Shown here: one piece after another, positions 45,161-62,672 of the stretch
How the letters are laid out: each line of letters opens with the position of its first letter
Numbering within the stretch: the stretch's first letter is position 1
Made by a program: the position numbers and the translations under genes
Notes under the pieces: model-generated
Seen by the model: only the letters and a program-made list of their open reading frames with translations
Databases searched by the model: none
Told to the model about the DNA's origin: nothing
NCBI GenBank assembly: GCA_964390865.1
Contig: CAYMKR010000002.1
Location: forward strand, 840-64,839
Direction: 5' to 3'
DNA length: 64,000 bases
Source of the DNA: an uncultured Flavobacteriaceae bacterium
GTDB taxonomy: Bacteria > Bacteroidota > Bacteroidia > Flavobacteriales > Flavobacteriaceae

Positions 45161-46651
45161 CTATTTTCTGTCAACATCTACTAATCGTTCTGAATCAAAT
45201 TCCTTAATTTGATTCAACGTATTTTGAAGCTCTTTATATACTGACTCTTGCTTTTCGATTAAGTTTTCAGTTTCAGAAATATCGGCATCCAGATTATACA
45301 ATTGTGGCTTCAATTGTTGCGCCAGGTGTTTTTTTGCACCTGCTTTTAATGGAGCCGCAGGAATCCCCTCAATATATTTCCAAGACCCTTTTCGTATGGC
45401 CATAACTCCGTTTACACTATTCACTATCATCGTATTTCTTATAGCTTTTTCGTTCGGTTTACCTACCAATTCATCATAAAAACTAAAACTATCTGGAGCT
45501 GCTTCCAAAGGAGGAAGTACATCTCCACCTACTAAATCTTGAATCGTAGCAAAAATATCTACTACGTTTATCATTCTATCTGAAACGGTTCCTTTTTTAA
45601 TTTTACTTGGCCATCTAACTATAAGAGGTACTCGGAATCCTCCTTCCCAAATGGTATGTTTATCTCCCCTAAATGCTCCGTTATTTTCTAGACCTAACTT
45701 ACGAGCTTCCTTTTCTTCAACATCTCCAATATTTCCTCCGTTGTCACTAGTAAATACAAGTACCGTATTATCTAAAACCCCAGCATATTCTAAGGCTTCA
45801 ATAATTTCGCCCACCGAGTTGTCGAGGTCATGAATGTAATCACCGTAGGCTCCAGCATTACTTGTGCCTCGCAATTTATCACTAGGTGCAACGGGCGTAT
45901 GAATAGCCACAGGAGCAAAATATAAGAAAAAAGGTTTATCGGAATTGTCACTAGCAGACTTATATATCCACTCCCGTGCTTTATCATTCAAATCCTGAGT
46001 CACATTTGTGGTTACTCGCTGTGGAGCATCATAACCATGATACGGTTGTGCTTTGTAGTAACTCCTCCCGTACGAACTTCTACCTTGAGATCGCAATCCC
46101 CAAATCCCTTCGTTTTCTATATAAACTTTTGGAAGCCAATCAATATTATTAGGTACACCAAAATGGTAATCAAAGCCAAGTGAATTTGGTCCAGGTGTTA
46201 GTGGTTGTGCTGATAAATCTTCAGTATTATCATTATTGGTATAACCTAAATGCCATTTTCCAATATGGGCAGTATTATATCCGTGTTGTTGTAAATAGGA
46301 GGGAAGTGTTAATAATTCTTCTTCTATCAGTAATGGACCTTCAGGTGGTTGTAATACGCCATATTTTAACTTACCTCTCCAAGCATACCTTCCTGTAAGC
46401 AATGCATATCTTGTTGGAGAACAAACGGAACCGGGTGTATTGGCATCTGTAAAAAGCATGCCTTCCTCTGCCAATCGATTCATGTTTGGTGTACGAATAA
46501 GTGATTTCGGTGCTCCATAACAATTGGAACTTCCGTAACCAAAATCATCTGCAAGAATGACAACAATATTTGGTTTGGATTGTGCTGACAGAAAATTTAT
46601 TGCCATAATAAGCATCATAGCATTGAGCATGAATTTTATTTCTAATTTCAT
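45161..46651 (-). CDS. Arylsulfatase (S1 family)
   Basis: PNIVVILADDFGYG, VCSPTRYALLTGR, GKWHLG, AIHTP and TSDNGG motifs. Confidence 0.95.
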   Translation of the reverse strand: MKLEIKFMLNAMMLIMAINFLSAQSKPNIVVILADDFGYGSSNCYGAPKSLIRTPNMNRLAEEGMLFTDANTPGSVCSPTRYALLTGRYAWRGKLKYGVLQPPEGPLLIEEELLTLPSYLQQHGYNTAHIGKWHLGYTNNDNTEDLSAQPLTPGPNSLGFDYHFGVPNNIDWLPKVYIENEGIWGLRSQGRSSYGRSYYKAQPYHGYDAPQRVTTNVTQDLNDKAREWIYKSASDNSDKPFFLYFAPVAIHTPVAPSDKLRGTSNAGAYGDYIHDLDNSVGEIIEALEYAGVLDNTVLVFTSDNGGNIGDVEEKEARKLGLENNGAFRGDKHTIWEGGFRVPLIVRWPSKIKKGTVSDRMINVVDIFATIQDLVGGDVLPPLEAAPDSFSFYDELVGKPNEKAIRNTMIVNSVNGVMAIRKGSWKYIEGIPAAPLKAGAKKHLAQQLKPQLYNLDADISETENLIEKQESVYKELQNTLNQIKEFDSERLVDVDRK

Positions 46652-46671
46652 TTTGTCCTTTTAAATATTAA

Positions 46672-49401
46672 TTATTCAATGGCATGCACATAACCATCGG
46701 CAGCCAGTACATAAACTTTATCTCGGTAAATACACAAGGTAGATTCTTCTACACGATGCCCCAATTTTTTAATCCAAATTGGTTTTCCTGTTTTCTGATC
46801 TAAACAGTAAAAGAAAGGTGTATTACCTGAGGCAATATAGACGCGACCGCTAGCCAAGGCAGGAGCAGACAAGCCTCCACCATCTGGAAAGGTCCAATTG
46901 ATTGCAGCTGTTTCAGGGTCAACACTATATACTCTACTTGACAATGGTACACCTCCAATACCTCTCCCAACACGTGCCGAGAAAAAGGCCATACCATCTA
47001 CAAAAGCGGGACTGGCATTAAAGCCCGAATGCACTCCTTTTTCTTTTGTATTCTTGTTTCCGTCATGTAAGAGTTCTCCTGTTTTAGCCTCAAAAGATCT
47101 GAAGATATTAGAGCCGCTAGGCAAATAGATCTTACCGTTTTCGGCAATTAAAGTACCCGAATCGAGACCAACTCCATTTACTTTCCAAACAATCTTACCC
47201 GTTTTCTTATTAAAAGCATATAATGAATGGCTCCATGAACCAAAATAAACCAAGTCACCATCAATGGCAGGTTCGGCAGGTACCGATTTGGCGGTAGGAT
47301 ACATCCAAACGATATGACCTGTTTTTCCATCTAAACAAACAGCATATCCATTCACTGTAGGTACATATACCAAACCATCATCTACTGCAGCTGATCCCCA
47401 AACCCATCCTCCAGGAATTGTTTGTTTCCAAACCAGCTCGCCTGTTTCGGCATCCAGGCAGTAAAAAAAACGTTCCCCACCTTGCTGACCTGCATATACC
47501 TTTCCATCGGCAATGGCAGCTCCTACCGAGATAGCGCCTCCCATTTCAAACTTCCAGTTTTCTTCTCCTGTTTCTGCATCAACTGAATATAAAAATCCAC
47601 TTGGAGTGCCAAAAACTAGGTTGCCGTCAGCTGCAGTTGGCTTACTTTGATAATAGGTTCCTCCTGATATTTGATCGGTAAATATCCGTTCGCCCTGTTC
47701 ATTTTCAAATGCACACAGAATGCTCTTTTTCCATTGCATTTTACCATCATTGCCTAAACAATAAAGCATTAGATTACTGTCAGTAATTAATAATTCATCT
47801 CCATTGCTTACTAAATCGGCATAAATGGCATGCGAACTTATTTTTTTATCCCACTTAACTTTTCCCTTGAGGTCTACATTGTATAGCTGACCACTAATAG
47901 TGGCAAAATAAATTTCATCGTCATTAACAACCGGGCTTGCACGAATCCAGTCATCGGCTTTAACTTTCCATATCAATTTTCCGCTAATTGCATCCAAACA
48001 ATAAAGTTGTTTATCTGCTCCGCCAACATATAGTTTGTTGTTATGCAAAACAGGAGTTGTAAAATGTTTTCGTGCACCTTTTTCAGGGTTCTTCACTTTA
48101 AACTCCCACGCTAATTTTCCATCCGATTCATTCAAACAATACACACTTCCGCCATTAGCTCCAAAAAACACCTTTCCGTTCTTTACAGTTACAGCAGAGT
48201 TAACTGAGCCGTTGGATAAAAAATTCCAGGCAATACGCTTGTTTCCTTTTTTATTGGAAAGATTCAAGGCATAAACATAACCTTCCATGGTACCCTGAAA
48301 CACTTTATCACCAGAAATAACTGGCTCGGCCAAGGCATCGATATCACCAACATTAAAATCCCAAAGTTTCTTCTTATTCTGTGAATCGGCACAAATCAAC
48401 CTGTTTAGGTTTTGGCAAATAGCGGGAGTAGAATAGATATCATGGACTCCAAAAGGGTAAACCACAAAATCTTCATTCCCGGTTACGGCAGCATAACGCG
48501 TACGATAATCGATATGCCCGGCATAACGACGTGCTTCAATTTCCCCGGTTTCTTTATTTAAATACACAAGGTTACGTGCTTGTCCGTCATTTCCACCGTG
48601 CGAATTAATCTCTCGCAAAACCACCTGGTTGTTTATCAGCAATGGAGTTGAAGCCATTCCAGGATATTTGTACAAGTAAAAAATAGGAACATTTTGGGTA
48701 GATTTCCAAATCTCATTTCCTGTTTTTAAATCCAAACAAAATGAGCTTGCCCGCATACCTGGAGAGGTAACATATACCCGATCATTTTCAATTACTGGCC
48801 GTGCGTACCATCCAAGGCTTACAGGAAATTTCCATTTCTCTCGTCCATAACTTGGACCGGGTGCAGTTGTAGAACCATTATTGTGTTTATTGGCCTGAAA
48901 CATGGGCCAGTTGGCAGACATGTCGCCGCCTGTCACTTTTGTTTCTGCTTCAAAAGGGGTGAAAATCGGTCCGTTTTCTACAAATTCCTTTTGAATCTCC
49001 TCCATTTTCGTAAATCCTTCATCTATGGTTTGACATATTTGAACCACCGCCTCAATGTATTTACTGTTTTGTTTATTATCAACTAATGATTCCCTTTTGT
49101 CATGCTTTGTTAAGGCCTGACCAAACTGAAGTGGGTTATTAATTTTTGTTTCCAATTTGCGATACTGGAGGTCTAAATCAAAAAACGAGAGCGTATTGGC
49201 TCCCTGCTGTTGTAATGCACCCATCCACATATAAAGTATTTTTGTACGTTCTTTATAATTTGCTTCTGTTGTTTTATTATTTTTTACCTCAATTCTTGTT
49301 TTGTCAATATCAGTGCTTCCACTTTTGTATTTCTGAGCGACTAGTTTGTTAGTAAATATGACTGTTAAACATATCAAGAGAATCCATTTTATTCTATTCA
49401 T
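46672..49401 (-). CDS. Secreted PQQ-binding-like (BamB-type) beta-propeller repeat protein, 909 aa
   Basis: Many YCLDA.TG..IWK / ..SP.V..G.VY.G blades; NWPMF..N..N.G start; N-terminal helical region. Confidence 0.85.
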   Translation of the reverse strand: MNRIKWILLICLTVIFTNKLVAQKYKSGSTDIDKTRIEVKNNKTTEANYKERTKILYMWMGALQQQGANTLSFFDLDLQYRKLETKINNPLQFGQALTKHDKRESLVDNKQNSKYIEAVVQICQTIDEGFTKMEEIQKEFVENGPIFTPFEAETKVTGGDMSANWPMFQANKHNNGSTTAPGPSYGREKWKFPVSLGWYARPVIENDRVYVTSPGMRASSFCLDLKTGNEIWKSTQNVPIFYLYKYPGMASTPLLINNQVVLREINSHGGNDGQARNLVYLNKETGEIEARRYAGHIDYRTRYAAVTGNEDFVVYPFGVHDIYSTPAICQNLNRLICADSQNKKKLWDFNVGDIDALAEPVISGDKVFQGTMEGYVYALNLSNKKGNKRIAWNFLSNGSVNSAVTVKNGKVFFGANGGSVYCLNESDGKLAWEFKVKNPEKGARKHFTTPVLHNNKLYVGGADKQLYCLDAISGKLIWKVKADDWIRASPVVNDDEIYFATISGQLYNVDLKGKVKWDKKISSHAIYADLVSNGDELLITDSNLMLYCLGNDGKMQWKKSILCAFENEQGERIFTDQISGGTYYQSKPTAADGNLVFGTPSGFLYSVDAETGEENWKFEMGGAISVGAAIADGKVYAGQQGGERFFYCLDAETGELVWKQTIPGGWVWGSAAVDDGLVYVPTVNGYAVCLDGKTGHIVWMYPTAKSVPAEPAIDGDLVYFGSWSHSLYAFNKKTGKIVWKVNGVGLDSGTLIAENGKIYLPSGSNIFRSFEAKTGELLHDGNKNTKEKGVHSGFNASPAFVDGMAFFSARVGRGIGGVPLSSRVYSVDPETAAINWTFPDGGGLSAPALASGRVYIASGNTPFFYCLDQKTGKPIWIKKLGHRVEESTLCIYRDKVYVLAADGYVHAIE

Positions 49402-49412
49402 CCTAATTTTTT

Positions 49413-51077
49413 TTAAGGTTTTATTTTTTGTTCTGCAATATCACGATACACTTGGGTTAAGGGATCGTCAGCATTTTTCATATACTTGAGTAATCCATTT
49501 CTTGCTTTAGCCAATACATGGGCATATTCTGGATTTTCGGCAAGATTATGCATGCTCCCAGGATCATTCTTCCAATCATAAAGTTCTTCTTCTGCTCTAA
49601 GCAAAAATGATTCATAGCGTTCTTTTATTACTTCATCTTTTTCTGATGCATTTTTCAGGGCTCTTAAAGAAGGCCCATTATAAGGAACAATGGCTCCCAA
49701 ATCGCCTAATTCTAACCCGTCTTCTTGATAACAGTTGTTATAGACATATCCAAATTGCCCATCGTAGAAGGTCCTTATCTCCTTGCTTCGACTATAAGTT
49801 CCTGGAACAGCGTGGTCTGGACGGACTACCCAACCCATGCCTTCCAGTTTTTTTTCGAAATCAGGCCGTTGTTTTAGCACATTGGCTAGTCCATCACCAT
49901 AATAGATATCTTCATTGCGCAGATACACAATGGATTCACGCCATGATTCGGGAGTTCGGTTCTCTAAAAAAGGAACAAGAGACTTTCCATCCATCGGACT
50001 TGGAATTGGCAGATTTGCTAACTCTAACACCGTTGGCGTAATGTCCATAAGAGAGATTAGATGGTCTTTATCTTTCACAGGTTTTTTAATCCGTTCTGGC
50101 CAACGCATCAATAATGGCGAACGATTACTACCCATGTAACAATCGAATTTAGCATATGGCAATGGCATACCATTATCTGATACAAAAATAACAAGGGTAG
50201 ATGTGTTCTTGCCCAACTCATCCAAAACATTTAAACAAGCTCCTACAGTATCATCCAGTCGTCTTACTGACGACGCATATTTTGCCAGGTCGTTTCGTAT
50301 TTCTGGAATATCAGGTAGGGTTGGAGGCACTTTCACTTCTTCGGGCTTATAAATCCGCGAAGGATCTTTTATCTTAATTTTAAACTTACCATTACCCCAA
50401 AAAGGGATATTAGGATTAAACGGGTCACCATGAAATGGACGATGAGAATCTGCGGAATTTACAACCATAAAAAAAGGTTGATCGTTTTTATCGGCTTCTT
50501 GAATGAATTTACGCAATCCACCCGCTATTCCTTGCGGGTCTCTCCCTACCACACCATCTGGATCTGTAAGCCCCAACTTCTTGTTATCAAAAGCCCAATT
50601 AAAGGCTTCTATAGGTAGCATATGGTGTTTTTTGTGAATATTTCCAGTTAAATATCCAGAAGTTCTCAATAAGGCGGGTAACGTTGGTGTTCCCTCTTTC
50701 ATTGGAAAAAATCCACCTGAACCATAATGATTCGGAATCAATCCGGATAACATTGACTGACGTGCTGGTTGACACACAGATACAGAAGTAAAAGCCTTTT
50801 CGAAGGAAAAACTCTCTGCGGCCAAACGGTCTAAATTTGGTGTGACATCTGGTGCTACCCCTCCAGCAAAACCAGCACTATCATAATTAAAATCATCTGC
50901 AACAATTAATAATACATTAGGGCGCGAGGCCATTGATTTCGATTTCTTGCTATCAACATTTTCACATCCATGAACAACAAATATGCTCATAAAACCAAAT
51001 ACAATTAAGGTCCTGAATGTTAATTCTGAATGTAATTTCATGTTAATATTTTGAATTATTCTTATATATTTTTCCAT
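49413..51077 (-). CDS. Sulfatase, heparan-N-sulfatase-like
   Basis: PNVLLIVADD, VCQPARQS, DSHRPF, SDNGMP and EELYD motifs. Confidence 0.92.
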   Translation of the reverse strand: MEKYIRIIQNINMKLHSELTFRTLIVFGFMSIFVVHGCENVDSKKSKSMASRPNVLLIVADDFNYDSAGFAGGVAPDVTPNLDRLAAESFSFEKAFTSVSVCQPARQSMLSGLIPNHYGSGGFFPMKEGTPTLPALLRTSGYLTGNIHKKHHMLPIEAFNWAFDNKKLGLTDPDGVVGRDPQGIAGGLRKFIQEADKNDQPFFMVVNSADSHRPFHGDPFNPNIPFWGNGKFKIKIKDPSRIYKPEEVKVPPTLPDIPEIRNDLAKYASSVRRLDDTVGACLNVLDELGKNTSTLVIFVSDNGMPLPYAKFDCYMGSNRSPLLMRWPERIKKPVKDKDHLISLMDITPTVLELANLPIPSPMDGKSLVPFLENRTPESWRESIVYLRNEDIYYGDGLANVLKQRPDFEKKLEGMGWVVRPDHAVPGTYSRSKEIRTFYDGQFGYVYNNCYQEDGLELGDLGAIVPYNGPSLRALKNASEKDEVIKERYESFLLRAEEELYDWKNDPGSMHNLAENPEYAHVLAKARNGLLKYMKNADDPLTQVYRDIAEQKIKP

Positions 51078-51080
51078 TAT

Positions 51081-52511
51081 TTAATGGAGTTTCAAAAGAG
51101 GAACTGGCTTCGCAACATAGCCTGCAGAACGCGAATTTGGAGCAACGAGATCTTCATCTCCTATATAACTTTTAGCCATTTTTTTGAAGACTTCAATTTT
51201 CTTAACGGTATCCGGATATGTTACTGATAGTTCATTTTCTTCGCTGACATCATTTTTTATATTGAATAATTTCATTCCCACTTTTTTCGTTTTTAGATTC
51301 CACATATTCTTGTGAAAATCATTTTGTAGATATAATTTCCAATCTGATGTTCTAATGGCTTGAAGTTGATCTAATTGATAATAGGCAAAAAAGGCATGTG
51401 GCGTTTTTGCCTTTTCGGGATCCGTAAACAATGGCCATATATCCTGTCCATCAATCACCACATTGGGGAGTTCGCAGTCTACTAAATTGGCAATAGTAGG
51501 ATAGAAATCCATCATTGTTGCTAATTCTTTACACTGTTTACCTTCAGCAATTTTACCCGGCCAGTTTACAATCATGGGAACGCGCATGCCACCTTCGAAG
51601 ACCGTGCCTTTATATCCTTTTAAAGGCGCGTTTGAACGTTCAACTGGTCGACCAGGAGCTCCATTATCAGAGGTGAATACTACAATTGTATTTTCCCTAA
51701 GATTCAATCTGTCGAGCGTTTCAAGTACTTGTTTAGTAGACCAATCTATTTCTTCAATGACATCTCCCAAAATTCCGTTTTCCGATTTTCCCTTAAACTG
51801 AGGGCTTGCGAAAAGTGGGCTATGCGGCATGGTATGAGACAGCATTACAAAGAAGGGTTCATCTTTGTTTTCTTCAATAAATTTTATGGTTTCTTCGGTA
51901 TATCTTTTGGTAATAGTTTCTTGAACAACCGGAGCTTCAATAACAGTTTCATTTCTAAGCAAAGGTATTTCTGGGTGTTCGTAAATCTTTCGATGTGCTC
52001 GAATATCACTTCCAGGACCAGTATCATTGCTATAAGGTATACCGTAGAAATAGTCAAAACCTTGATTGGTTGGCAAAAATTCTTTTTGATCACCTAAATG
52101 CCATTTTCCAATCAATGCTGTATTATAATCTTTTTGTTTAAGGAGTTCGGCAATGGTTATCTCTTTTGGATTTAGCCCCATTTCATCAACAGGAAAACAA
52201 ACACATTCTCCGCGATAATTCATATCCATTCCAATACGAATTGGGTAGCTTCCGGTCATCAAAGCTGCTCTCGACGGTGTACACAATCCACTAGCTGCAT
52301 AAAAATCTGTAAATAGAACTCCTTCTTTTGCTAATTTATCAATTGTTGGTGTACGATTAAGCTCATTACCATAGCAGCCTAAATCGCCATATCCTAAATC
52401 GTCACAAAGAATGAATACAATATTAGGTGGTTTTTCTTGTGAATATCCTTTTTGTATTGTTAGGAAAAAGAGAAAAATTATTAAACTGCCAATAAATCTA
52501 ATTTTGAGCAT
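51081..52511 (-). CDS. Sulfatase, arylsulfatase A/GALNS-like
   Basis: PNIVFILCDDLGYGD, LCTPSRAALMTG, GKWHLG, GIPYSND and MPHSP motifs. Confidence 0.95.
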   Translation of the reverse strand: MLKIRFIGSLIIFLFFLTIQKGYSQEKPPNIVFILCDDLGYGDLGCYGNELNRTPTIDKLAKEGVLFTDFYAASGLCTPSRAALMTGSYPIRIGMDMNYRGECVCFPVDEMGLNPKEITIAELLKQKDYNTALIGKWHLGDQKEFLPTNQGFDYFYGIPYSNDTGPGSDIRAHRKIYEHPEIPLLRNETVIEAPVVQETITKRYTEETIKFIEENKDEPFFVMLSHTMPHSPLFASPQFKGKSENGILGDVIEEIDWSTKQVLETLDRLNLRENTIVVFTSDNGAPGRPVERSNAPLKGYKGTVFEGGMRVPMIVNWPGKIAEGKQCKELATMMDFYPTIANLVDCELPNVVIDGQDIWPLFTDPEKAKTPHAFFAYYQLDQLQAIRTSDWKLYLQNDFHKNMWNLKTKKVGMKLFNIKNDVSEENELSVTYPDTVKKIEVFKKMAKSYIGDEDLVAPNSRSAGYVAKPVPLLKLH

Positions 52512-52574
52512 GCTATTTTTAAATTATTTAATATTTCTAATTTGTTTCTTGATACATTTTTTCATTTGCTATTC

Positions 52575-55172
52575 TTATTTTATTGCATATAAGTAACCAT
52601 TTTTGATCAAAGCAAAAACTTTATTACCATAAATGGATGGGACACTTTCTAACATGATACCACCAACATGTGTTTTCCAGATCACCTCGCCCGTTTTAGG
52701 ATTCAGGCACGTTAAAAATGGATCCGCAGATGATCCGAAAATTATTTTATTTTTAGTTAATACAGGTGATGTCAATCCACCACCCCCTTTGTATTCCCAA
52801 AGTAGTTCTCCTCCGTTTGAGAAGTCATTAAAAGCATATATGGTGGCGTTATATGGCAAACTGGTAACTTGCCTTATGGCAGATCCAAAGATCATATTAT
52901 CCATAGCAGCAATGGTTCCATTTTGTAGCCAGCCGGGTTTAACAGCCCATTCCCAATCTATTTTTCCTGTATGTTTATTGATTGCAGCGATACGGGATCC
53001 TGCTTTTTGAACATATAAGTGATTTTTATGCAAAACAGGTGCAGCAGAATCTGGCAATCCTCCATCAATACCTTCTGGTTGTGTTTTTCTACGCCATAAC
53101 AATTCACCTGTTAATTGATCAAAAGCAAAATAGTATCCGGACCAGGATCCAGTATAGACAACATTCCCTTCAGTAATTGGGTTGCAATACACACCAGGAG
53201 GCCATCCATGATGACTTCCTTTTAAGGATTTGTTTTCATCTGGAGTGTTTTTTGCCGTGAAGTAATTCCATAATTTTTTTCCAGTGTTTGGATCTAGCGC
53301 AAAGAAATCACCGTTCATATTTCCAAGAAATATCATTCCGTTGTCGTAAGCAGCACTGATCCAAACTGATCCTAATTCTTGTGAAGTCCAAATGGGTTTA
53401 CCAGTGTTTTTATCCAGTGCGAAATACGTTCCGAAACTCTCATAAGTTTGACCAACAAATACTTTACCTTCTGCCACAGTGGGAGAAGGGGAGCAACTGC
53501 TTTTAGTTTCAAACTTCCACAGTTCTTTTCCTGTTTCTGTGTCTACGGCATTGACAAATCCATCAGGACTGGCAATATATAAAATGCCATCAACAATGGT
53601 AGGAGAACTCTGTTGACCAGAGATTTCACCAGCAGCAAAAAACTTTCCATTTACCCAAGTACCGTCTAATTGACTGTGAAGCCATTGTGTTTTTCCAGTG
53701 TTTGGATCCACAGAGGTGAGCATCATATTGCGGTCGCTAAATAGAACCCCTTGTTTGTTACCTACCAAATCAGCAGTAAAACCATGATCACTTATTTTCT
53801 CTTTCCAAATAAGTGAAGGTGTTTTTTTGGAAATATCTAAAGCATATCCTATACCAGATAAATCTGCAATGAAAATGGTTTTATCAACTATTATTGGTCT
53901 TGACCTATTCCAATCCTGAGTTTCAAACTCCCATAATTTTTTTCCACTTTTCCCATCCAAACAATAGATAAATTTGTCTGCGCTCCCTATATATAAATAT
54001 CCGTCTTCAGCAATAGCCGAACCAAAAAAATCATAGGCACGTGGTTCCTCTTTATCGGATTTGAATCGCCAAACTTCGTTTCCTGATTCTGATTCTAAAG
54101 CAATCAATAATCCAGACTTAAATCCTACAAGTACCTTATCATCGGCATAAGAGATATTACCTCTAATTGTTGCATTGAATGATTTTTCCCAAAGAACAGC
54201 GCCATTCTGTTTATTAACTTTATAGCATGTATTTTTAGTAGAAGTTACGAATACCGCATTATTTGTGCTGGCTGGTTGGCCGGTAACTTCCCCTTTGGGT
54301 TTAAAACTCCATATTTGATTACCAGTATCTGAATCGTTACAACTTATAACATTATTAAAAATATTGACAATGGATTCGGAATTGGTTGCATTGTTAATTC
54401 CAGTGTAATACCGCTTTGAGAACTCTTTTTTTCCCGTTTCTAAATTAAATCTGTTAAGTTTAGAACCCGTTCTAACAATCAAACTATTGTCAACTATTTG
54501 CGGTGTTTTTTTGGCACCTGGGCTCGTATAATAACTTGCTGAGTTAGTCCTTCCTTTCCAAATTACATCTCCTGTTTTTTGATTTAAACAATAGGCTATT
54601 ACATCCGTACCTGCACCTGCCGTGTATACTTTTCCATCGAGTAAAAGAGCATTTGCATTCCATCCGTTTGTCTTCGGGAATTTCCAAACGATCTCACCTG
54701 TTTCTGGTCCTTTGTCAGGGCTGTATCCATTTTGTGAGCCATTTACTCCATGATAAACTGGCCAATTAATGGTGCTTGATGATTGAGTTGAAGCTTTACC
54801 TTTTACTTCTTTAATAAATATAGGATTGGCAATAATATGTTCCAAAGTTGCAAATCCATTGTCTATAACTCCGTATACCATTTTATTATCGTTACTCAAA
54901 ATGATTAAATCATTTGCAAATGAATCGAAAGATGACATATCCATTCCTTGACGCCTTAACAAACGCCATAAACGGTACAAAGCTGCACGTCTTTCTTTAA
55001 CATTCCTTTCAATCGTTGGATTGTTCTTTACTGTCTTTCTTAATTGGTCTAATTCGGCATGCCAAGAGCCAACAATCGTATCATTTCCTATTGAAGTATC
55101 GCTCTGGAAGGGATAACAATGACAGGCGAACAATAAAATAAAAACTGTGATATGGATTCTTTTCAATTTCAT
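52575..55172 (-). CDS. Secreted PQQ-binding-like beta-propeller repeat protein, 865 aa
   Basis: Repeated A.D..TGK.LW blades; colinear with the 909-aa paralog, including the KER...LY......QG N-terminal motif. Confidence 0.85.
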   Translation of the reverse strand: MKLKRIHITVFILLFACHCYPFQSDTSIGNDTIVGSWHAELDQLRKTVKNNPTIERNVKERRAALYRLWRLLRRQGMDMSSFDSFANDLIILSNDNKMVYGVIDNGFATLEHIIANPIFIKEVKGKASTQSSSTINWPVYHGVNGSQNGYSPDKGPETGEIVWKFPKTNGWNANALLLDGKVYTAGAGTDVIAYCLNQKTGDVIWKGRTNSASYYTSPGAKKTPQIVDNSLIVRTGSKLNRFNLETGKKEFSKRYYTGINNATNSESIVNIFNNVISCNDSDTGNQIWSFKPKGEVTGQPASTNNAVFVTSTKNTCYKVNKQNGAVLWEKSFNATIRGNISYADDKVLVGFKSGLLIALESESGNEVWRFKSDKEEPRAYDFFGSAIAEDGYLYIGSADKFIYCLDGKSGKKLWEFETQDWNRSRPIIVDKTIFIADLSGIGYALDISKKTPSLIWKEKISDHGFTADLVGNKQGVLFSDRNMMLTSVDPNTGKTQWLHSQLDGTWVNGKFFAAGEISGQQSSPTIVDGILYIASPDGFVNAVDTETGKELWKFETKSSCSPSPTVAEGKVFVGQTYESFGTYFALDKNTGKPIWTSQELGSVWISAAYDNGMIFLGNMNGDFFALDPNTGKKLWNYFTAKNTPDENKSLKGSHHGWPPGVYCNPITEGNVVYTGSWSGYYFAFDQLTGELLWRRKTQPEGIDGGLPDSAAPVLHKNHLYVQKAGSRIAAINKHTGKIDWEWAVKPGWLQNGTIAAMDNMIFGSAIRQVTSLPYNATIYAFNDFSNGGELLWEYKGGGGLTSPVLTKNKIIFGSSADPFLTCLNPKTGEVIWKTHVGGIMLESVPSIYGNKVFALIKNGYLYAIK

Positions 55173-55185
55173 AGTAGTCTAACTA

Positions 55186-56661
55186 TTATCGGCTGTATTT
55201 TTGATTACGAATTTTTTTTAATAGTTGTTTCATTTCCACAACCTTTTCAACACTGTCGTTAATAAGGTCATTAGTTTCATTCGGATCTATTTTGAGATTA
55301 TAAAGTTGTTCGTGAGCTTCTGCCAATCGCCGTGGGTGGTTTTTACCCTTTATAAAGGGAGGATTGGGATCTGCAATAATTCCTTCTATGTATTTCCATC
55401 CATCGACCTGAAAAGCCACAATTCCTTCAAAACTCGTGTAAATCATATGGTCTCGAATTGGTTTTGCTGGAGCACCAAATAATGCTGGATAAAAACTATA
55501 ACTATCGCCAGCTTCAACCTTTGGATCTTGCATGTCTTGATTTACTATTTCCAAAATAGTTGCGTAAATATCAACCAAATTGACCAATTCATTAGAGGTA
55601 CTTTCTGGCTCAATTCTATCTGGCCACTTTACAATAAATGGTACACGAAACCCACCGTCAAACACGGAAAGTTTGGTGCCTCGAAAGTCACCATTGATTT
55701 TAAGTCCAGCATCAATTGCATCTTTTGCACCAGCGGGATGCCCTCCGTTATCAGAAGTAAAAATAACTATGGTGTTGTCTGTAAAATTGTTTCGTTCTAA
55801 GGCTTTTAAAACAGAACCTACTGAAGCATCTAATTCCATGATATAATCGCTGTAAACACCCCCATTACTGGCTCCAACAAATGATTTAGATGGGGTAAGT
55901 GGTGCGTGTATGGCTGGCATAGGATAATATAAAAAGAATGGTTTCTCTTCTGATTGGGCATCCATCCATTCGTCAATACGTTTATTCAAAGTACTCGTTG
56001 TTTCCGTATTGGCACGATAAGGAGCAGGTATTCCCATCATTGGCTTACCTTTCCAATTGGTTTTTGGCTGCCTTTGCTGAGGTGGTAAATCATCCATAGA
56101 ATCTACCAATCCATAGGTGTGATCGTTTTCTACCCAAATTCCAGAAAGGTCACCGTTATTACTTGGAACTCCCCAATGATAATCGAATCCTAAATCCAAA
56201 GGACCTGGAGTTAATGGTCTGGTATAGTTGGTTGGATTTTTACTTTGATAACCAAGATGCCATTTACCAATAGCAGCTGTATTGTAACCCAATGCTTTTA
56301 GTCGTGATGCAATAGTGGACCTCTCTGTATCTATTGACAACGCGCTTTTAACTCCTGACACACCATATTTTTTACCATCTCGCCATTGATACTGTCCAGT
56401 GAGTAAACCATAACGAGTTGGAGAACAAACAGATGACGGGGTGTAGGCATTGGTGAATTTTCGACCTTCCAGAGCTAATTTGTCTATGGCATGGGTTTTA
56501 AGAACGTTTGTGTCACACCCATATGCTCCTGAGCTTCCGTATCCAAGATCATCAGCAAGGATAATTACAATATTAGGAAGTTTTTCTTGTGAATAACTTT
56601 CGCTTGCAGAAAGCATCAAAATGCAAAAAATAAAAAAACGAGAAAATATATCTTTCACCAT
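55186..56661 (-). CDS. Arylsulfatase (paralog of 45161-46651)
   Basis: PNIVIILADDLGYG, VCSPTRYGLLTG, GKWHLG, AIHAP and TSDNGG motifs. Confidence 0.95.
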   Translation of the reverse strand: MVKDIFSRFFIFCILMLSASESYSQEKLPNIVIILADDLGYGSSGAYGCDTNVLKTHAIDKLALEGRKFTNAYTPSSVCSPTRYGLLTGQYQWRDGKKYGVSGVKSALSIDTERSTIASRLKALGYNTAAIGKWHLGYQSKNPTNYTRPLTPGPLDLGFDYHWGVPSNNGDLSGIWVENDHTYGLVDSMDDLPPQQRQPKTNWKGKPMMGIPAPYRANTETTSTLNKRIDEWMDAQSEEKPFFLYYPMPAIHAPLTPSKSFVGASNGGVYSDYIMELDASVGSVLKALERNNFTDNTIVIFTSDNGGHPAGAKDAIDAGLKINGDFRGTKLSVFDGGFRVPFIVKWPDRIEPESTSNELVNLVDIYATILEIVNQDMQDPKVEAGDSYSFYPALFGAPAKPIRDHMIYTSFEGIVAFQVDGWKYIEGIIADPNPPFIKGKNHPRRLAEAHEQLYNLKIDPNETNDLINDSVEKVVEMKQLLKKIRNQKYSR

Positions 56662-56681: not shown

Positions 56682-58043
56682 TTAATAAAGATGATCAAAA
56701 AACGTATAATAACTTTCTTGATTTATTTTATGCGCTAAAAAACATAGTTCTACCATATGATAATCACCCCACATACTTGACTCATTAGCAGGTACTTTTT
56801 GACCTTCAGGAATATGATCCCAACCATTGGGCCAATGATAAACGGAATGTTTTAATATACCTTGATGGTCAGGCTCTACTGCGAGATAATCATCGGTCAA
56901 TAAGGTGCGTAAAGTTGTGAATCCGGCCTGTTCATATTTTTTAGCCTCGACAGGTTCTTTTTCTTTTAACAAATTTGAAAGCCTTAATAAGCCCTGAGCA
57001 GCTATTGCTGCAGCCGAGCTATCAATGGGTTCGTAATCGTTAATTATTTCTGCTTTACGGTCTTGGTACTTTCCTAAATAATGAATTTTAGGCGCTCCCG
57101 TATCCCAATAGGGAATCCCGTCTGATGAGGTGTTTTTGATATAAAAATCGCAGGTTGCTTTAGCTGCTTTTAAGAAACTCGCTTTAACAACTTCTATCCC
57201 TTCAAAATCGATAGACTCTTGATTTAGATATTCTAAGAATTCTGAAAAGCCAACCATTGCCCAAGCCAGTCCTCTGGTCCAGGTGGTAAACCCTGAAAAG
57301 CCCTGTTGTGAATTTGGACAGCGGTAATTCCCATCATTCGTATTAAAAATGGACTCGTGTGCTACACGTCCCCAAGTATCGTAAGTATCTCTTCCTTCAC
57401 CATAAAAAACAGCATATTTAGCAGTAGTCATTCCATGGGTTACTGCTTTTTGCAGTAAATCTATTTGTTTGTCATTTTCGTCTAAGAGTCGATGTCCTAA
57501 CTTATGGGTCGCTAATAATATTCTAGTTGTTCGAATGGTATCTATAAACAAGGAATGTGGACCGTTAAACGAATAAATAAACCCGCCATCTTTTACATCA
57601 GTCCAGCGCTTAGATTGTACAGAACCAGACATTGATATGGCCAATTTATAATAGTCTTTTTCTTCTTTACTCGCATCCAATATATTTTGATTGGCCATAC
57701 GCAATAAATTTCCGTAGGTACTCAAATTATTAAAACCATGATCATGCACTCCAAAATGACTTAAATGGTGTGCCATATTTGCTATGGTATTCTCTTTTCC
57801 AAGATGTAGCATTTCTTTATTTCCGGTTGCTTCCGCAATTAATAAAGGAATACCATATTGAAAACCCTGAGTCCATTCTGTCCAACCTCTTGTTGTATAT
57901 TCTCCATTTACGGTAAATACCGGAGCCCCCTTAGATGTATCATATACTTTGTTAAGTGCTTCAGTCTTATTGCTGGCAAGATTCCAAAAATCATCTAAAG
58001 ATTTTTTTAGATCTGAACCTTTTATATGAGTATCTATAATCAT
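56682..58043 (-). CDS. GH88-like unsaturated glucuronyl hydrolase, cytoplasmic
   Basis: WTQGF, HDHGF, FIDT, WTRGLAWA, IPYWD, DSSAAAIAA and WGDY motifs; no signal peptide. Confidence 0.85.
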   Translation of the reverse strand: MIIDTHIKGSDLKKSLDDFWNLASNKTEALNKVYDTSKGAPVFTVNGEYTTRGWTEWTQGFQYGIPLLIAEATGNKEMLHLGKENTIANMAHHLSHFGVHDHGFNNLSTYGNLLRMANQNILDASKEEKDYYKLAISMSGSVQSKRWTDVKDGGFIYSFNGPHSLFIDTIRTTRILLATHKLGHRLLDENDKQIDLLQKAVTHGMTTAKYAVFYGEGRDTYDTWGRVAHESIFNTNDGNYRCPNSQQGFSGFTTWTRGLAWAMVGFSEFLEYLNQESIDFEGIEVVKASFLKAAKATCDFYIKNTSSDGIPYWDTGAPKIHYLGKYQDRKAEIINDYEPIDSSAAAIAAQGLLRLSNLLKEKEPVEAKKYEQAGFTTLRTLLTDDYLAVEPDHQGILKHSVYHWPNGWDHIPEGQKVPANESSMWGDYHMVELCFLAHKINQESYYTFFDHLY

Positions 58044-58060
58044 GTAATATTGTTTCTTAT

Positions 58061-58768
58061 TTAGTCGTCCTGCTGAGAAATTTTTACCGCTAGTACGTCA
58101 AAATCAACATCAGATCCAGAAGTTGTTCTTGTGGCATCCATAAGTGCTGTTTTTGCCAAGGCATAAGCGATCGGTTTCATTCCTATTAAGGTATTCATAA
58201 AATCTTGCACACCTTTTTCATTTACCACGCGCGTTACCAAACCAATTTGTAAGGCCTGATTAGCATCCAGTCGTTCACAAAGTAAAATAATTCTTTTTGC
58301 ATTTGCTTCGCCAACCAACCGTCTCACTCTAGTCATTCCTCCCCAACCGGGTAACCAACCATTGGAAACTTCTGGAGAACTTAGAATCGCGGTAGGAGTT
58401 GCCAGTCTGAAGTCGCAGGCTAATGCGAGTTCAAGCCCTCCTCCCATAGCATATCCATTGATAAAAGTGACTGTAGGCTTACCAATCGTTTCAATTTTAT
58501 TATTGACGTCATTCCCTAATTCTATCCAACGTTTTACTTCATGATCTTTTAGTGTTTCAAACTCTTTAATGTTGGCTCCTGTTGAAAATGCTCTGTCTCC
58601 GGCACCTCTAAATAGGATGGCTTTTACCTCATTATTTTCTTTTGCAGAATCAATGGCATTGTTTAATCCTTCGAGCATTTCGAAGCCTATACAATTCATT
58701 TTTTGAGGATAATTGAGGGTTAAGGTTAATAGTCCCTCATTTAAATTTGTGATGATAAAATCTGTCAT
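58061..58768 (-). CDS. Enoyl-CoA hydratase/isomerase (crotonase) family protein
   Basis: RAFSTGANI, GGGLELALACD and PEVSNGWLPGWGG (both catalytic Glu present). Confidence 0.93.
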   Translation of the reverse strand: MTDFIITNLNEGLLTLTLNYPQKMNCIGFEMLEGLNNAIDSAKENNEVKAILFRGAGDRAFSTGANIKEFETLKDHEVKRWIELGNDVNNKIETIGKPTVTFINGYAMGGGLELALACDFRLATPTAILSSPEVSNGWLPGWGGMTRVRRLVGEANAKRIILLCERLDANQALQIGLVTRVVNEKGVQDFMNTLIGMKPIAYALAKTALMDATRTTSGSDVDFDVLAVKISQQDD

Positions 58769-60327
58769 AGACTAACTTCTTTTTGCAATAATCCTAATTT
58801 GCAATATTTAAAAATGTTGGCATCATAGATTTTTATAGAGCCATCGATAATTGGCATAAAATCCATCATATCTAAAACATCCTTTTGCAGATCTACTCCT
58901 GGCGCAATCTCTTTGAGTTGCAAGCCTTTGGTGGTTAGTTGAAAAAGCGCTCGTTCGGTTACATACAGCACTTCCTGTTTGTTATCCAGTGCATATTCGC
59001 TGGAAAACGTAATTTGCTCTACGTCATTAATGAATTTATTAAATTTACCGGGATGCTTAATTTCAAGTCCTTCTTCTGTAATTTCTTGTTGTGATTTTAC
59101 CGCAAAGGAACCACAGAACACTACTTTTTTGGCATTTTGTGAAATGTCTATAAATCCACCACAACCTGTTAATATATTTCCAAATCGACTTGAATTCACA
59201 TTTCCAAATTGGTCAATTTGAGCAAAACCTAAGAAGGTGATATCTAATCCACCGCCTTGAAAGAAATCAAACTGATAGCCATCATCAATAATAGAGGATG
59301 GATTGTACATGGCCCCAAAATTTAAACCTGTAGTTGGAATTCCTCCTGAGGGACCTTGTTCAATCATAAAAGTAAGTTTGCTCGCAATGCCTTCTTCTTG
59401 AGCTACAATAGGTACACCGTCAGCCATCCCATAGCCTAAATTTACAAAAGTACCCTCCTGAAGCTCTAGGGAGGCTCTTCGCATAATAATCCGCTTTAAT
59501 CCTCCCAATTTCAAATCTTCAGAGGTATATGCTTCTTTTCTATCTACCAGCGCTTTATCAAAAGAAGAAATAAAAGTCATCTCCTGAGTTTCATCCTGCA
59601 CTACATAATCAATAAATATCCCTGGTACTTTTACCCTTCCTGGATCACAATTAGATTCATTAATATTTTTAACCTGAGCAATTACGATACCTCCATTTAC
59701 CTTCGCAGCTTGTGCAATAGACAGCATAGAGAAAAACCCAACTTCTTCTTCCATGGTTAAATTGCCTTCCACATCAATTGAGGTTCCCCTAATAATTGCA
59801 ACATCTACTTTTAATGATGGGTAAAAAAGATAATCTTCATTGATTAAGGTTACGTGAGAAACAAAATCTTCAGTAGTAATACTATTGATTTTTCCACCTT
59901 CTATATGTGGGTCTACAAAAGTTTTTAAACCAACTTTAGTAATAACACCTGGTTTACCGGATGCACTGGCGCGCATTAAATGACTTAGCACTCCTTGAGG
60001 TAAATTGTATCCTTTTATTTTATTTTCTTTAGCTAAAGCTGACATTTTTGGAGCATTACCCCAAAACCCACCAATATTGGTATCGATCAAGCCTTCCAAG
60101 GCTACATGATTTAATCCCTTAGAATCATTATCTCCAATGCCACAAGGATGAACTGTTTTAAGATTCTTTGGACTACCCGTATTTTTGAATCGTTCTCCCA
60201 AATACGCCATCACTTTATCCGGTACAGCATGTCCTGCGCCTGCACCGCCAAAAACCACAGTATCTCCATCGTTAATATGGCTGACTGCTTTTGTTGCTGA
60301 TACTATTTGAAATTTAGTTACTTTCAC
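58765..60327 (-). CDS. Acyl-CoA:acetate/3-ketoacid CoA transferase (family I, YdiF/propionate CoA-transferase-like)
   Basis: YNLPQG, TKVGL.TFVDP, VNLGYG, IEQG (catalytic Glu), QFDFFQGGGLD, GNVNSS and GCGGFIDISQ motifs; GTG start. Confidence 0.93.
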   Translation of the reverse strand: MKVTKFQIVSATKAVSHINDGDTVVFGGAGAGHAVPDKVMAYLGERFKNTGSPKNLKTVHPCGIGDNDSKGLNHVALEGLIDTNIGGFWGNAPKMSALAKENKIKGYNLPQGVLSHLMRASASGKPGVITKVGLKTFVDPHIEGGKINSITTEDFVSHVTLINEDYLFYPSLKVDVAIIRGTSIDVEGNLTMEEEVGFFSMLSIAQAAKVNGGIVIAQVKNINESNCDPGRVKVPGIFIDYVVQDETQEMTFISSFDKALVDRKEAYTSEDLKLGGLKRIIMRRASLELQEGTFVNLGYGMADGVPIVAQEEGIASKLTFMIEQGPSGGIPTTGLNFGAMYNPSSIIDDGYQFDFFQGGGLDITFLGFAQIDQFGNVNSSRFGNILTGCGGFIDISQNAKKVVFCGSFAVKSQQEITEEGLEIKHPGKFNKFINDVEQITFSSEYALDNKQEVLYVTERALFQLTTKGLQLKEIAPGVDLQKDVLDMMDFMPIIDGSIKIYDANIFKYCKLGLLQKEVSL

Positions 60328-60346
60328 TTCTATACTTGAATATATT

Positions 60347-60354
60347 CAAATGTA
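60347..60354 (-). promoter_or_regulatory. -7 promoter box of the CoA-transferase operon
   Basis: CAAATGTA on the plus strand is TACATTTG on the minus strand. Confidence 0.55.
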
Positions 60355-60366
60355 GTAAAAATTAAT

Positions 60367-60380
60367 ATTACACGTGTAAT
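60367..60380. promoter_or_regulatory. Probable LacI-family operator
   Basis: Perfect 14-bp palindrome ATTACACGTGTAAT with central CG, 12 bp upstream of the -7 box, next to a divergent LacI gene. Confidence 0.75.
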
Positions 60381-60498
60381 GTTTTTATAATTTTTTATAT
60401 CTTCACATCAAATTAACTGCTTCTTGGTTTTGATGATATAGGAATTATACGATAAGACTAGGTGCTCTTAGAATATTAAAAACTAAAAAAGATTTAAT

Positions 60499-60506
60499 TA
60501 TATTTG
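60499..60506 (+). promoter_or_regulatory. -7 promoter box of the LacI regulator gene
   Basis: TATATTTG about 30 bp before the TTG start. Confidence 0.5.
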
Positions 60507-60536
60507 ATTATAATCTTTTCTAAAAAAATTGTTTAA

Positions 60537-61553
60537 TTGAAAGTTAACCAACAGTATATAGCCAATCTACTTAAAATTTCAAGGGTAACGGTAACAAAGG
60601 CTCTTCAGGAACACCCGGATATTGCTAAAAGCACGGTAAAGAAAGTTAAAGAACTAGCAGATGAGCTGGGATATATTCCAAACATTGTAGGCAGAAACCT
60701 TTCAACTAAAAAGACAGGCACTATTGGGCTTATCGTACCAAAAATTAACCATTCTTTTTTTTCGACAATTATAGAGGAAATGTATACCAAGGCAAAGGTT
60801 TTAGGGTATCAAATTATATTGATGGTTTCCTTTGAGAACGAAGAATCAGAACTGGCCAATGTGAAATCCTTACTTTCTATGAATGTAGATGGTATTATTA
60901 TAGATTCTGTTTCTACTTCAGACAAAGACAAGTCATACGAATTAATTTTAAAACATAAGAAACCTTTAATTTATATCGATAGAAAACCGCGGTCTATAAA
61001 GAAGGTAGAAAGTATTGTTTTTGATGATTTCAATTTATCATATAAGCTTACAAAAGGCTTAATTGATAAAGGCTATAAGAATATAATGTGTATTACCGGA
61101 TCTCAAGAAATTAATATTTGCTACAACCGATTAACTGGATTTAAAGGGGCAATGAAAGAGTCAAAACTAGACATAAGAAAAGACACTGTTTTAATGGCTG
61201 GACTTGATAAGCACAGTGCCTTTGATGTTTTTGATAAGTACGTTGAAAGTAATTCCAAACTGCCAGATGCAGTTGTTTGCGTGAATGATTCTGTAGCTCT
61301 GGGAGTTTATAAAGCATGCAAAAAACATGACATTAATATTCCAGATGATATAGGTGTTATTGGCTTTGGACACGTAAGTGCTTCTAACTTAGTACAACCA
61401 CCACTTTCTACTGTAAAACTCAATTTACAAAAAGCAAGTTTCACTGCCGTTGAAAACTTAATCGCTCTTATAAACAACAAACCAGTTCGTAAAAACACTG
61501 TTATAGAAGGGGAAGTTATATTTAGAGAAAGTGTAAAACAAAAAAAGCATTAA
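60537..61553 (+). CDS. LacI family transcriptional regulator
   Basis: N-terminal HTH (IANLLKISRVTVTKAL), LGYIPN, VDGII, IPDDIGVIGF and PPLSTV motifs. Confidence 0.95.
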   Translation: MKVNQQYIANLLKISRVTVTKALQEHPDIAKSTVKKVKELADELGYIPNIVGRNLSTKKTGTIGLIVPKINHSFFSTIIEEMYTKAKVLGYQIILMVSFENEESELANVKSLLSMNVDGIIIDSVSTSDKDKSYELILKHKKPLIYIDRKPRSIKKVESIVFDDFNLSYKLTKGLIDKGYKNIMCITGSQEINICYNRLTGFKGAMKESKLDIRKDTVLMAGLDKHSAFDVFDKYVESNSKLPDAVVCVNDSVALGVYKACKKHDINIPDDIGVIGFGHVSASNLVQPPLSTVKLNLQKASFTAVENLIALINNKPVRKNTVIEGEVIFRESVKQKKH

Positions 61554-61562: not shown

Positions 61563-62672
61563 TTATTTTTTCCAGTTATCAATTCTAACTTTTTTACCTG
61601 TGGCTACACTTTTTCTGGCAGCATCTAATATTCTAACTACCTTTAGATTATTATCCAATCCTGATAGGTCGTTTTTATCAAGAACAATAGTACCCTGAAC
61701 AACAGCTTTAAAAAAGTCAAAAGCATTGTTATTCGGTTTTGCTCTATCTTCTAACTTTAGTTGTAACTCGGGTTTTTGTCGTTCTAATTTATAACTAACA
61801 TCGGCATGATTATGAGCAATTACATAACCTGTTTCTCCATAAACTTCAATATCTTTTCTGCTGTAAGGCCAATTCCAAGAGGGTTGCAAGACACCCGTCA
61901 TATCTTCATATTCTAATAAAATAGTGGCATCATCATCAACTTTAGAATAAATGTCTGGCTTAAAACTACTTGCAGTTGCATAAACAAAGGTTGGCATTTC
62001 GCCTTCTTTTAACCAGGTAATCAAGTTGGCTCCATAGCATCCAAAATCAGTAATGGCACCTCCTCCATTTTTATCAGGATCTGTCAACCATTCTAAAAAC
62101 TCATCACTCACCTTTATTTCTTTAGGACCCGCATGGCCATCGTTCACAATAATTCTTCTTGGTCTCCCTATTTTCTTTTCTGTATTTAATAGTTGATTCA
62201 CAAACTGATGAGAAGGATACCATGTAGTTTCGTAATTGGTAATCAGGTGTATCTGATACTTTCTTGCCAAACCAGCCATTTCTTCAGCGTGCTTATAGTT
62301 TATAGCTAACGGTTTTTCAACCATTACATGAATACCCTTTGGAGCACATTGTTTTACGGTGTTTAAATGTTCGTATGTAGCATTAAAAGCAGCCACCGCT
62401 TCTGGCTTCGTTTTATCGAGCATCTCCTCTAAACTAGGGTATACAATATCCATCGAAAAACCAAATTGCTTAGATAAACGTTCAGCTAAGGCTCGGTTAG
62501 GCTCGGCGATACCCACTAAATCGAAGGTTGTTGTATCATTATGCTTAAACACCCAAACTACATGACCGTGCGATAGGCCGTCTACGCCTAATTTTAGTTT
62601 TTTAGTTTGGGAAATCATGTTGACACTCAGTGTCAAACATATGATTAAAATAATCGTTTTTTTTAGCTCCAT
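61563..62672 (-). CDS. Gfo/Idh/MocA family oxidoreductase, Sec signal peptide
   Basis: GLSHGHV, VMVEKPLA, NYETTWY and GGGAITDFGCYG motifs. Confidence 0.9.
   Translation of the reverse strand: MELKKTIILIICLTLSVNMISQTKKLKLGVDGLSHGHVVWVFKHNDTTTFDLVGIAEPNRALAERLSKQFGFSMDIVYPSLEEMLDKTKPEAVAAFNATYEHLNTVKQCAPKGIHVMVEKPLAINYKHAEEMAGLARKYQIHLITNYETTWYPSHQFVNQLLNTEKKIGRPRRIIVNDGHAGPKEIKVSDEFLEWLTDPDKNGGGAITDFGCYGANLITWLKEGEMPTFVYATASSFKPDIYSKVDDDATILLEYEDMTGVLQPSWNWPYSRKDIEVYGETGYVIAHNHADVSYKLERQKPELQLKLEDRAKPNNNAFDFFKAVVQGTIVLDKNDLSGLDNNLKVVRILDAARKSVATGKKVRIDNWKK

Follow-up and report, generated by a model that had tools for sequence, protein, structure and literature searches.

Why should a CoA-transferase, a crotonase and a divergent GH88 protein be encoded together at the head of a run of sulfatase genes? 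The question is raised by a stretch of 64,000 nucleotides from an uncultured Flavobacteriaceae bacterium (assembly GCA_964390865.1, contig CAYMKR010000002.1, positions 840 to 64,839), referred to here as the window. The original prediction for these three genes (CoAT, ECH and GH88L; together the trio) was that the terminal uronic acid of a glycan is activated as a CoA thioester, dehydrated to the 4,5-unsaturated form and released by the GH88 enzyme. The trio is conserved, co-regulated and tied to sugar-acid genes, namely those for an aldehyde dehydrogenase (ALDH), sugar and Nramp-type transporters, kdgK-eda and uxaC. We give an even chance to its being the core of a CoA-dependent pathway that would isomerize a ring-closed monosaccharide acid to 2-keto-3-deoxygluconate (KDG), the best guess for the substrate being a 2,6-anhydro-hexonate (a C1-deoxy uronate, e.g. 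oxidized 1,5-anhydromannitol). Every reaction and the substrate are predicted here from the genes, residues, fold, operator and gene partners described below.

Active sites, conservation and regulon of the trio

Gene order, the ATGA overlap of CoAT and ECH, the 17-bp gap between ECH and GH88L, and the divergent LacI gene with its operator were all recovered as originally described, with agreeing coordinates (Table 1). N-terminal hydropathy maxima were 1.25, 1.15 and 0.29 for the trio and 2.65–3.05 for four secreted-looking neighbors; by this crude check, not SignalP, the trio lacks signal peptides, as had been proposed. Catalytic residues are likewise intact: E324 in CoAT, E113 and E133 in ECH, and D101 and D168 in GH88L, the last assigned by motif only.

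CoAT aligned with Escherichia coli YdiF (2ahu) at an E value of 1.6e-131, with E324 of its IEQG motif opposite YdiF E333, which we take to be the catalytic Glu. A fused alpha-beta chain with the Glu in an E-x-G motif places the enzyme in family I, YdiF/Pct type; its score against the staphylococcal FadX equivalog NF052271 was 396 bits, below the curated cut-off of 750. Window-type CoATs formed a clade of their own in the tree (support 1.0), in which the best plasmid CoAT matches by identity, from polyhydroxyalkanoate/acetate or archaeal beta-oxidation settings, were used as outgroups only. None of 16 selected CoAT matches, mostly the longest, was fused to ECH or GH88. One protein, P0241 (1039 amino acids), is a tandem duplication of a YdiF-type CoA-transferase. 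A Skermanella plasmid CoAT near a "GH88" gene was considered as a parallel case and rejected, because the neighboring protein, a CBM35-linked enzyme, does not meaningfully resemble the window GH88L.

ECH has the two catalytic Glu residues and oxyanion-hole motifs of a crotonase, and none of the 25 NCBIfam families listed for it attained its cut-off. E113, E133, W81 and W142 were present in 46/46 relatives and in 13/13 enzymes from clusters containing 1,5-anhydrofructose reductase (AFR). Both Trp residues are common to the two sugar-linked ECH clades and absent from the genome's housekeeping crotonase. The linked thiolase and 3-hydroxyacyl-CoA dehydrogenase of a beta-oxidation operon were found neither by Pfam in the window run, as originally predicted, nor among the scanned open reading frames (ORFs) of the complete genome G1119, although an acyl-CoA dehydrogenase does occur there.

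GH88L matched the Pfam GH88 family marginally (26.9 bits against a cut-off of 26.6). Its AlphaFold model (pLDDT 93) is an (alpha/alpha)6 barrel closest to unsaturated glucuronyl hydrolase (UGL); the top nine structure matches were all UGLs (Z 38.5–43.6), led by 3wiw (Z 43.6, root mean square deviation 2.2 Å over 359 residues), with GH105 at Z 31 or below. H100-D101 aligns with UGL His87-Asp88, and R257 corresponds to UGL Arg221, which presumably binds the carboxylate. In GH88L, W57, F61, D101, D168 and H229 are the counterparts of UGL Trp42, Phe46, Asp88, Asp149 and His193, D168 being paired by motif, with no printed structural pair and with the stretch misaligned by HMMER. These five UGL residues are named as functional in the UGL literature (PMC4528949). 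W57, D101, D168, H229 and R257 were invariant in 94/94 GH88L sequences, and F61 in 44/44. Twenty sequences, the trio's GH88L among them, form a clade (support 1.0); ECH stands alongside in 17 cases, and the Devosia protein was placed elsewhere. A further GH88L match, L180 (G386:C4:1263911-1265278), contains one TAG.

A metagenome scan anchored on ECH gave 47 loci, reduced to 46 by leaving out a distant one (L137, 30%). Within 7 kb of ECH, 36 of these had CoAT, 20 had GH88L and 17 had the two together. Many of the contigs are short; among the 16 loci with room on both sides, 11 held CoAT and GH88L and 10 held ALDH, in three gene orders, the trio being shuffled in L106, L118 and L136. As a rough same-contig proxy, 20/89 contigs with ECH matches (at least 2 kb) were equal in length to a contig with a top GH88L match. 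Both ECH and GH88L are carried by Galbibacter, Ulvibacterium marinum and Aestuariivivens sediminis. The module is rare (CoAT in 0/150 relatives, 1/380 family genomes and 6/400 phylum genomes), and five of the six CoATs in the 400-genome Bacteroidota sample are of the AFR-cluster type. GH88L occurred in 29 genomes of that sample, including all six with CoAT, unlinked in each; these six represent four genera (Fisher test by genus, p 1.4e-4, its significance inflated by kinship). The dependence is one-way: CoAT genomes have GH88L, and most GH88L genomes lack CoAT.

The operator, ATTACACGTGTAAT, is a perfect 14-bp palindrome. The 2.76-Mb assembly (G000, 70.9% complete) holds two copies of the operator's 12-bp core, both on the window's contig; the second, just past the window edge, precedes a propeller-Gfo run on one side and a divergent one with a GH38 gene on the other. 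A 10-bp core was found in 25 copies in 15/46 ECH-anchored loci (347 kb) and in none of 78 other GH88L loci (1.31 Mb), with 0–2 copies in 20 shuffles. Across loci it precedes CoAT, ECH, ALDH, sugar transporter, LacI and GH92 genes. These sites define a regulon, and the LacI-family regulator is likely to bind them. In the marine loci the regulon includes GH92/GH38 alpha-mannosidases, SusC/D and sulfatases.

L048, from Aestuariivivens sediminis, reads LacI, GlcU-family transporter, ALDH, CoAT, ECH, GH88L, Nramp-like and uxaC. The linked transporter belongs to the monosaccharide family PF06800. The ALDH scored 515 bits against a Sinorhizobium ALDH (3u4j) and 504 against L-sorbosone dehydrogenase (7w5l), its best PDB matches, with the next at 420. 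In G1119 the run is ALDH, CoAT, ECH, GH88L, propeller and Nramp-like. All four operator sites of this genome lie within 53 kb, and the genes that they precede are kdgK-eda, a SusC/D run, two for GH92 and five for additional propellers; one site stands between kdgK-eda and the SusC/D run. The last gene of that run encodes an acyl-CoA dehydrogenase with 63% identity to the one in the Sinorhizobium meliloti pSymA CoAT-ECH cluster, an identity that ties the marine and rhizobial clusters together. The kdgK-eda pair also adjoins L102 and L103. No SDR or KduI was present in the 80 kb mapped in G1119; KduI was not found in G000, G287 or G454, gave a weak distant match in G1119 and lay on another contig in G157. 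The classical UGL-KduI-KduD-KdgK-Eda linkage, with kduI and kduD beside the hydrolase, was not seen.

The rhizobial records comprise DUF993, LacI, AFR, CoAT, ECH, ALDH, an ABC transporter, a choline-dehydrogenase-type GMC, SDR, a further GMC and glycerate kinase. We assume that the ABC transporter gene of the afr cluster is smc04396. Induction of smc04396 by dextrin is on record in a published study (PMC4960864). In Devosia (L018) a single run holds AFR (2glx, E 2e-167), CoAT, ECH, two GMCs and GH88L. A second rhizobial cluster type adds aldo-keto reductases, acyl-CoA dehydrogenase and, in one record, an electron transfer flavoprotein. Clusters with acyl-CoA dehydrogenase and aldo-keto reductase (L088, L090, L151, L153; L203:419-1567) are a candidate route for ascopyrone-derived 4-deoxy-anhydro sugars.

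Among 300 Alphaproteobacteria, DUF993 occurred in three of the four CoAT genomes; its only match was the uncharacterized protein 4dnh, and no paper on DUF993 was found in the literature search. A Gfo-DUF993-TIM cassette in Devosia (L156) mirrors GH88L-TIM-Gfo-SDR in Bacteroidota (L002/L084), and for this reason DUF993 and GH88L may be interchangeable, with DUF993 perhaps standing in for GH88L in rhizobia. DUF993 was in 0/5 GH88L genomes (four without CoAT and that of L048). Because the L151 cluster has kdgK-eda and no DUF993, DUF993 may instead be an aldolase.

A possible route to 2-keto-3-deoxygluconate and its rivals

In the proposed route, a sorbosone-dehydrogenase-like ALDH, present in most relatives, would oxidize an aldehyde to the sugar acid. 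CoAT would form the CoA thioester of this acid, acidifying the alpha-H, and the crotonase would eliminate the beta-OH, leaving a cyclic enol ether (in uronate numbering, the 4,5-ene), after which CoAT would hand the CoA to the next substrate molecule. The GH88-fold protein would then protonate and hydrate the enol ether to KDG, and KdgK and Eda would complete its breakdown. Since the ring oxygen lies alpha to the carboxyl, direct beta-elimination is unavailable and dehydration followed by rehydration would be needed. The cyclic enol ether would mimic the delta-4,5 uronate bound by UGL, and because GH88L keeps the UGL pocket, the three activities would form a coherent route. KDG would arise directly, with neither isomerase nor reductase, in agreement with a kdgK-eda pair lacking kduI/kduD.

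The CoA activation, crotonase dehydration and GH88-type hydration of the original prediction fit the evidence, given the retained pocket, but its substrate is less well supported: a glycan-terminal uronic acid with aglycone release is at odds with the lack of KduI and SDR in the G1119 region, and the ALDH partner and AFR clusters indicate a monosaccharide. On the choice between UGL-type glycosidase and hydratase, gene context suggests a free monosaccharide substrate for GH88L. Fructopyranose and sorbopyranose are 1,5-anhydromannitol and 1,5-anhydroglucitol plus one hydroxyl, so GMC and sorbosone-type ALDH homologues are plausible C6 oxidizers of anhydro-alditols.

A broader version is offered tentatively, as we think it somewhat less than probable. 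A widespread aerobic pathway family would open anhydro-sugar rings through a shared 2,6-anhydro-3-deoxy-hex-2-enonate, formed by CoAT and crotonase from hydroxylated rings and by CoAT and acyl-CoA dehydrogenase from 4-deoxy (ascopyrone-derived) rings, and the large GH88-fold subfamily (or DUF993 in rhizobia) would be the hydratase to KDG, not a glycosidase. Starting from 4-deoxy rings, clusters with acyl-CoA dehydrogenase and extra reductases could arrive at the same enol ether. According to a 2025 review, the enzyme following AFR is unidentified, an analogous oxidative pathway for 1,5-anhydroglucitol is undescribed, and such an enzyme would be needed to lower intestinal 1,5-anhydroglucitol in glycogen storage disease Ib (GSDIb)/G6PC3 neutropenia (PMC12441222). 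The present gene sets bear on two questions, the step after AFR and the oxidative 1,5-anhydroglucitol pathway; if true, the shared-intermediate family would take the place of the unidentified P450 step when 1,5-anhydrofructose is broken down, and 1,5-anhydroalditols would have a route that tolerates oxygen. No annotated P450 was present in the afr regions examined.

Several observations weigh against a route to KDG from an anhydro-hexonate. In the published route, 1,5-anhydromannitol is converted to mannose by an unidentified, P450-like enzyme that hydroxylates C1 (PMC12441222). Window-type and AFR-cluster-type CoATs are about 40% identical, their joint node (0.72) leaves sister status unsupported, and the CoAT and ECH trees gave no common origin for the two types. 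Neither the window locus nor L100 has ALDH or the GlcU-type transporter, and orthologues of the two are missing from the window's 70.9%-complete assembly (best ALDH 35%). AFR and GMC orthologues were found in 0/46 marine loci and not in the window's assembly, so that no rhizobial-type afr operon is seen and the source of the aldehyde in marine Bacteroidota is unexplained. GH88L was in 0/300 Alphaproteobacteria, the rhizobial clusters mostly lack it, and it is missing from five of the roomy ECH loci. The trio recurs in marine Bacteroidota, with a similar set in Devosia, but most GH88L genes lack CoA genes, with CoAT and ECH near only 2/80 (L048 and L018) of the GTDB loci, the best 80 of 595 confirmed, and CoAT in only 6/29 genomes. 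The usual neighbors in these 80 loci were SDR (41), Gfo (29), a TIM barrel (26) and an old-yellow-enzyme type oxidoreductase (15), and YdiF-type CoAT was in 0/5 genomes with non-trio GH88L loci. The alpha-mannosidases, SusC/D and sulfatases of the regulon suggest glycan-derived substrates.

That GH88L usually occurs without CoAT would also fit an uncoupled arrangement, which we consider unlikely, in which GH88L cleaves lyase-made delta-4,5 oligosaccharides and CoAT and ECH process a small hydroxy-acid (glycerate, lactyl or 3-hydroxyacyl) from the same glycan or mannoside. Beta-helix ORFs, possibly unrecognized lyases, adjoin ECH in L094, L097, L108, L111, L131 and L135; some ECH genes have their own operator with no CoAT adjoining (L127, L129 and L130); the solved structures closest to ECH are 3-hydroxypropionyl-CoA and crotonyl-CoA enzymes; and glycerate kinase lies within the rhizobial clusters. 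Set against this are the presence of GH88L in all six CoAT genomes even where unlinked, the separate clade of the trio's GH88L, the two Trp residues that distinguish sugar-linked ECHs from housekeeping crotonases, and the lack of thiolase and 3-hydroxyacyl-CoA dehydrogenase in the window run and among the G1119 ORFs scanned.

The intact UGL pocket would also serve the originally proposed scheme, now rather improbable, in which an oligosaccharide or glycoside is imported, its terminal uronic acid is activated with CoA and loses water to become the delta-4,5 form, and GH88 frees it from the aglycone. The alpha-mannosidases and sulfatases of the regulon might expose terminal glucuronic acid such as occurs in glucuronomannans; uxaC follows the trio in L048, and an MFS transporter, its N terminus ExuT-like by eye, follows it in L115. 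That a dehydratase can prepare the substrate for GH105 has been proven (PMC8511951). The product, 5-keto-4-deoxy-uronate, would nevertheless require KduI/KduD or a DehR-type SDR, and SDR was near 0/46 metagenome ECH loci, near L048 only among the GTDB loci and absent from the G1119 region. The ALDH and AFR partners would be left without a role, the transporter linked to the trio belongs to a family for monosaccharides, and glucuronidases and a CoA-free dehydratase already perform the job. In a third scheme, the acid would be either 3,6-anhydrogalactonate formed by ALDH or an imported 4-O-methyl-uronate, and CoAT and ECH would stand in for the cycloisomerase by eliminating the ring oxygen at C3 or methanol. 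This scheme would suit the marine, sulfatase-rich setting, the five roomy loci with ECH and no GH88L, and the absent GMC, since a free-aldehyde sugar needs ALDH alone, but is a long shot: no 3,6-anhydrogalactose dehydrogenase was named among the ALDH's 60 best PDB matches, no agarase or carrageenase family was found among the neighbors scanned, and GH88L would be unneeded on this route.

Other features of the window

GH88L is followed after 20 bp by the first sulfatase. Sulfatases are indeed present, as in the predicted run of about 15 kb, but the four-sulfatase stretch covers only 11.5 kb (45161–56661) with two secreted double beta-propellers inside it; the minus-strand run extends on to about 10 kb. 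No lyase family was found by Pfam among 33 window ORFs scanned, which bears out the predicted lack of a recognizable polysaccharide lyase. A scan for sigma-70 promoters and terminators gave signal at chance level.

Table 1. Positions of the trio, its operator and neighboring features in the window
Feature	Coordinates	Strand	Basis
CoA-transferase (CoAT), YdiF/Pct-type family I, 520 aa, GTG start	58765–60327	-	ORF call, Pfam, 2ahu alignment
Enoyl-CoA hydratase (ECH), short crotonase family, 235 aa	58061–58768	-	ORF call, Pfam, alignment
GH88-like protein (GH88L), divergent GH88/UGL fold, 453 aa	56682–58043	-	Pfam, alignment, AlphaFold model
LacI-family regulator, divergent from trio	60537–61553	+	Pfam/NCBIfam
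Palindromic operator ATTACACGTGTAAT, 40 bp before CoAT start	60367–60380	no strand	Sequence scan
Sulfatase, first of four in run, not a constant partner of the trio	55186–56661	-	Pfam
Three further sulfatases of run	51081–52511, 49413–51077, 45161–46651	-	Pfam
Secreted helical bundle with double PQQ-like beta-propeller, recurs in regulon	52575–55172	-	Pfam, structure comparison
Second double-propeller paralogue	46672–49401	-	Pfam
Secreted Gfo/Idh/MocA oxidoreductase, downstream of third propeller	61563–62672	-	Pfam

The double-propeller family accompanies the operator: besides the two copies in Table 1, one lies at G000 C2 63575-66154 and six paralogues occur in G1119 (L203, L204 and L206). 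Fold matches were generic (YxaL, tetrathionate hydrolase and BamB best; PQQ-ADH at Z 31.5), and these secreted proteins, which have a helical bundle at the N terminus, could be a dehydrogenase, a lyase or a binding protein; they are candidates for making the aldehyde in marine loci. A secreted protein of 184–224 amino acids (L150:3574-4170, L205:13266-13820, L100:1490-2086 and L048:2992-3666) stands directly behind the operator in three loci; it had no Pfam match in the two scanned and appears NUDIX-like by eye. An FG-GAP propeller of about 400 amino acids lies inside the CoAT operon in L108, L114, L118, L128 and L135; two of three scanned matched the aldos-2-ulose dehydratase propeller below cut-off, a lead only.

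Elsewhere in the window, 40308–45035 encodes a T9SS-sorted protein of 1575 amino acids that has a LamG domain and a CxxCH motif (CASCH), its N-terminal 900 residues being without a Pfam match. A GH92 protein, two unassigned proteins sharing AGYQGWF, a ROK kinase and an MFS transporter (12914–15928, 31363–32709, 32669–34957 and 3417–5683), with three more sulfatases at 18–31 kb, form a possible alpha-mannan utilization region. A secreted-looking ORF of 413 amino acids (6024–7265) has no Pfam match, is beta-helix-like by eye and is possibly an unrecognized lyase.

Comparison with known systems

No description of the combined CoA-dependent route was found in the literature search, within whose reach subscription papers and supplements did not fall, nor of a crotonase acting on a pyranose-CoA thioester. 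CoA-free dehydration of terminal uronates is already known (PMC8511951), and sugar-acid CoA thioesters have been proposed for deoxyribonate (PMC6365646). In the former, the ulvan oligosaccharide dehydratase P29_PDnc converts a saturated uronate to the 4,5-ene, which then goes to the unsaturated-uronyl hydrolase GH105, the same succession as proposed for the trio; P29_PDnc is cofactor-independent, PL37-related and active on oligosaccharides, whereas the trio would use a CoA thioester and a crotonase. The Klebsiella michiganensis deoxyribonate pathway shares a proposed sugar-acid CoA thioester, a propionate-CoA-transferase-like enzyme and glycerate kinase, but the part of the account available describes an open-chain substrate, oxidation and thiolysis, and neither a crotonase nor a GH88-like step. 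In the Sinorhizobium morelense 1,5-anhydrofructose pathway (AFR, 2glx), afr lies in operons with related CoAT, ECH and ALDH; it differs in the P450-like next step published for it (PMC12441222), and the window has no afr orthologue.

With the GH88 UGLs (Bacillus sp. GL1, 1vd5/2fv0; heparin-specific, 3wiw), GH88L shares the (alpha/alpha)6 fold (Z 43.5–43.6) and the pocket residues. It differs in being 22–25% identical, about 75 residues longer and part of a separate, highly conserved subfamily; it is predicted to be cytoplasmic, it occurs beside enzymes of CoA or redox chemistry and not beside known lyases, and its activity is predicted from sequence and fold. The subfamily comprises at least 8000 clusters, a very large number, and is assigned no function in the literature consulted. 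In CaiB/CaiD-type pairs, CoA is cycled by transferase and dehydratase. Like these pairs and the YdiF/Pct CoA-transferases, the trio enzymes retain the family I Glu and the two crotonase Glu residues; the known substrates are short acyl or carnitine acids, whereas the trio enzymes form clades of their own and accompany sugar genes.

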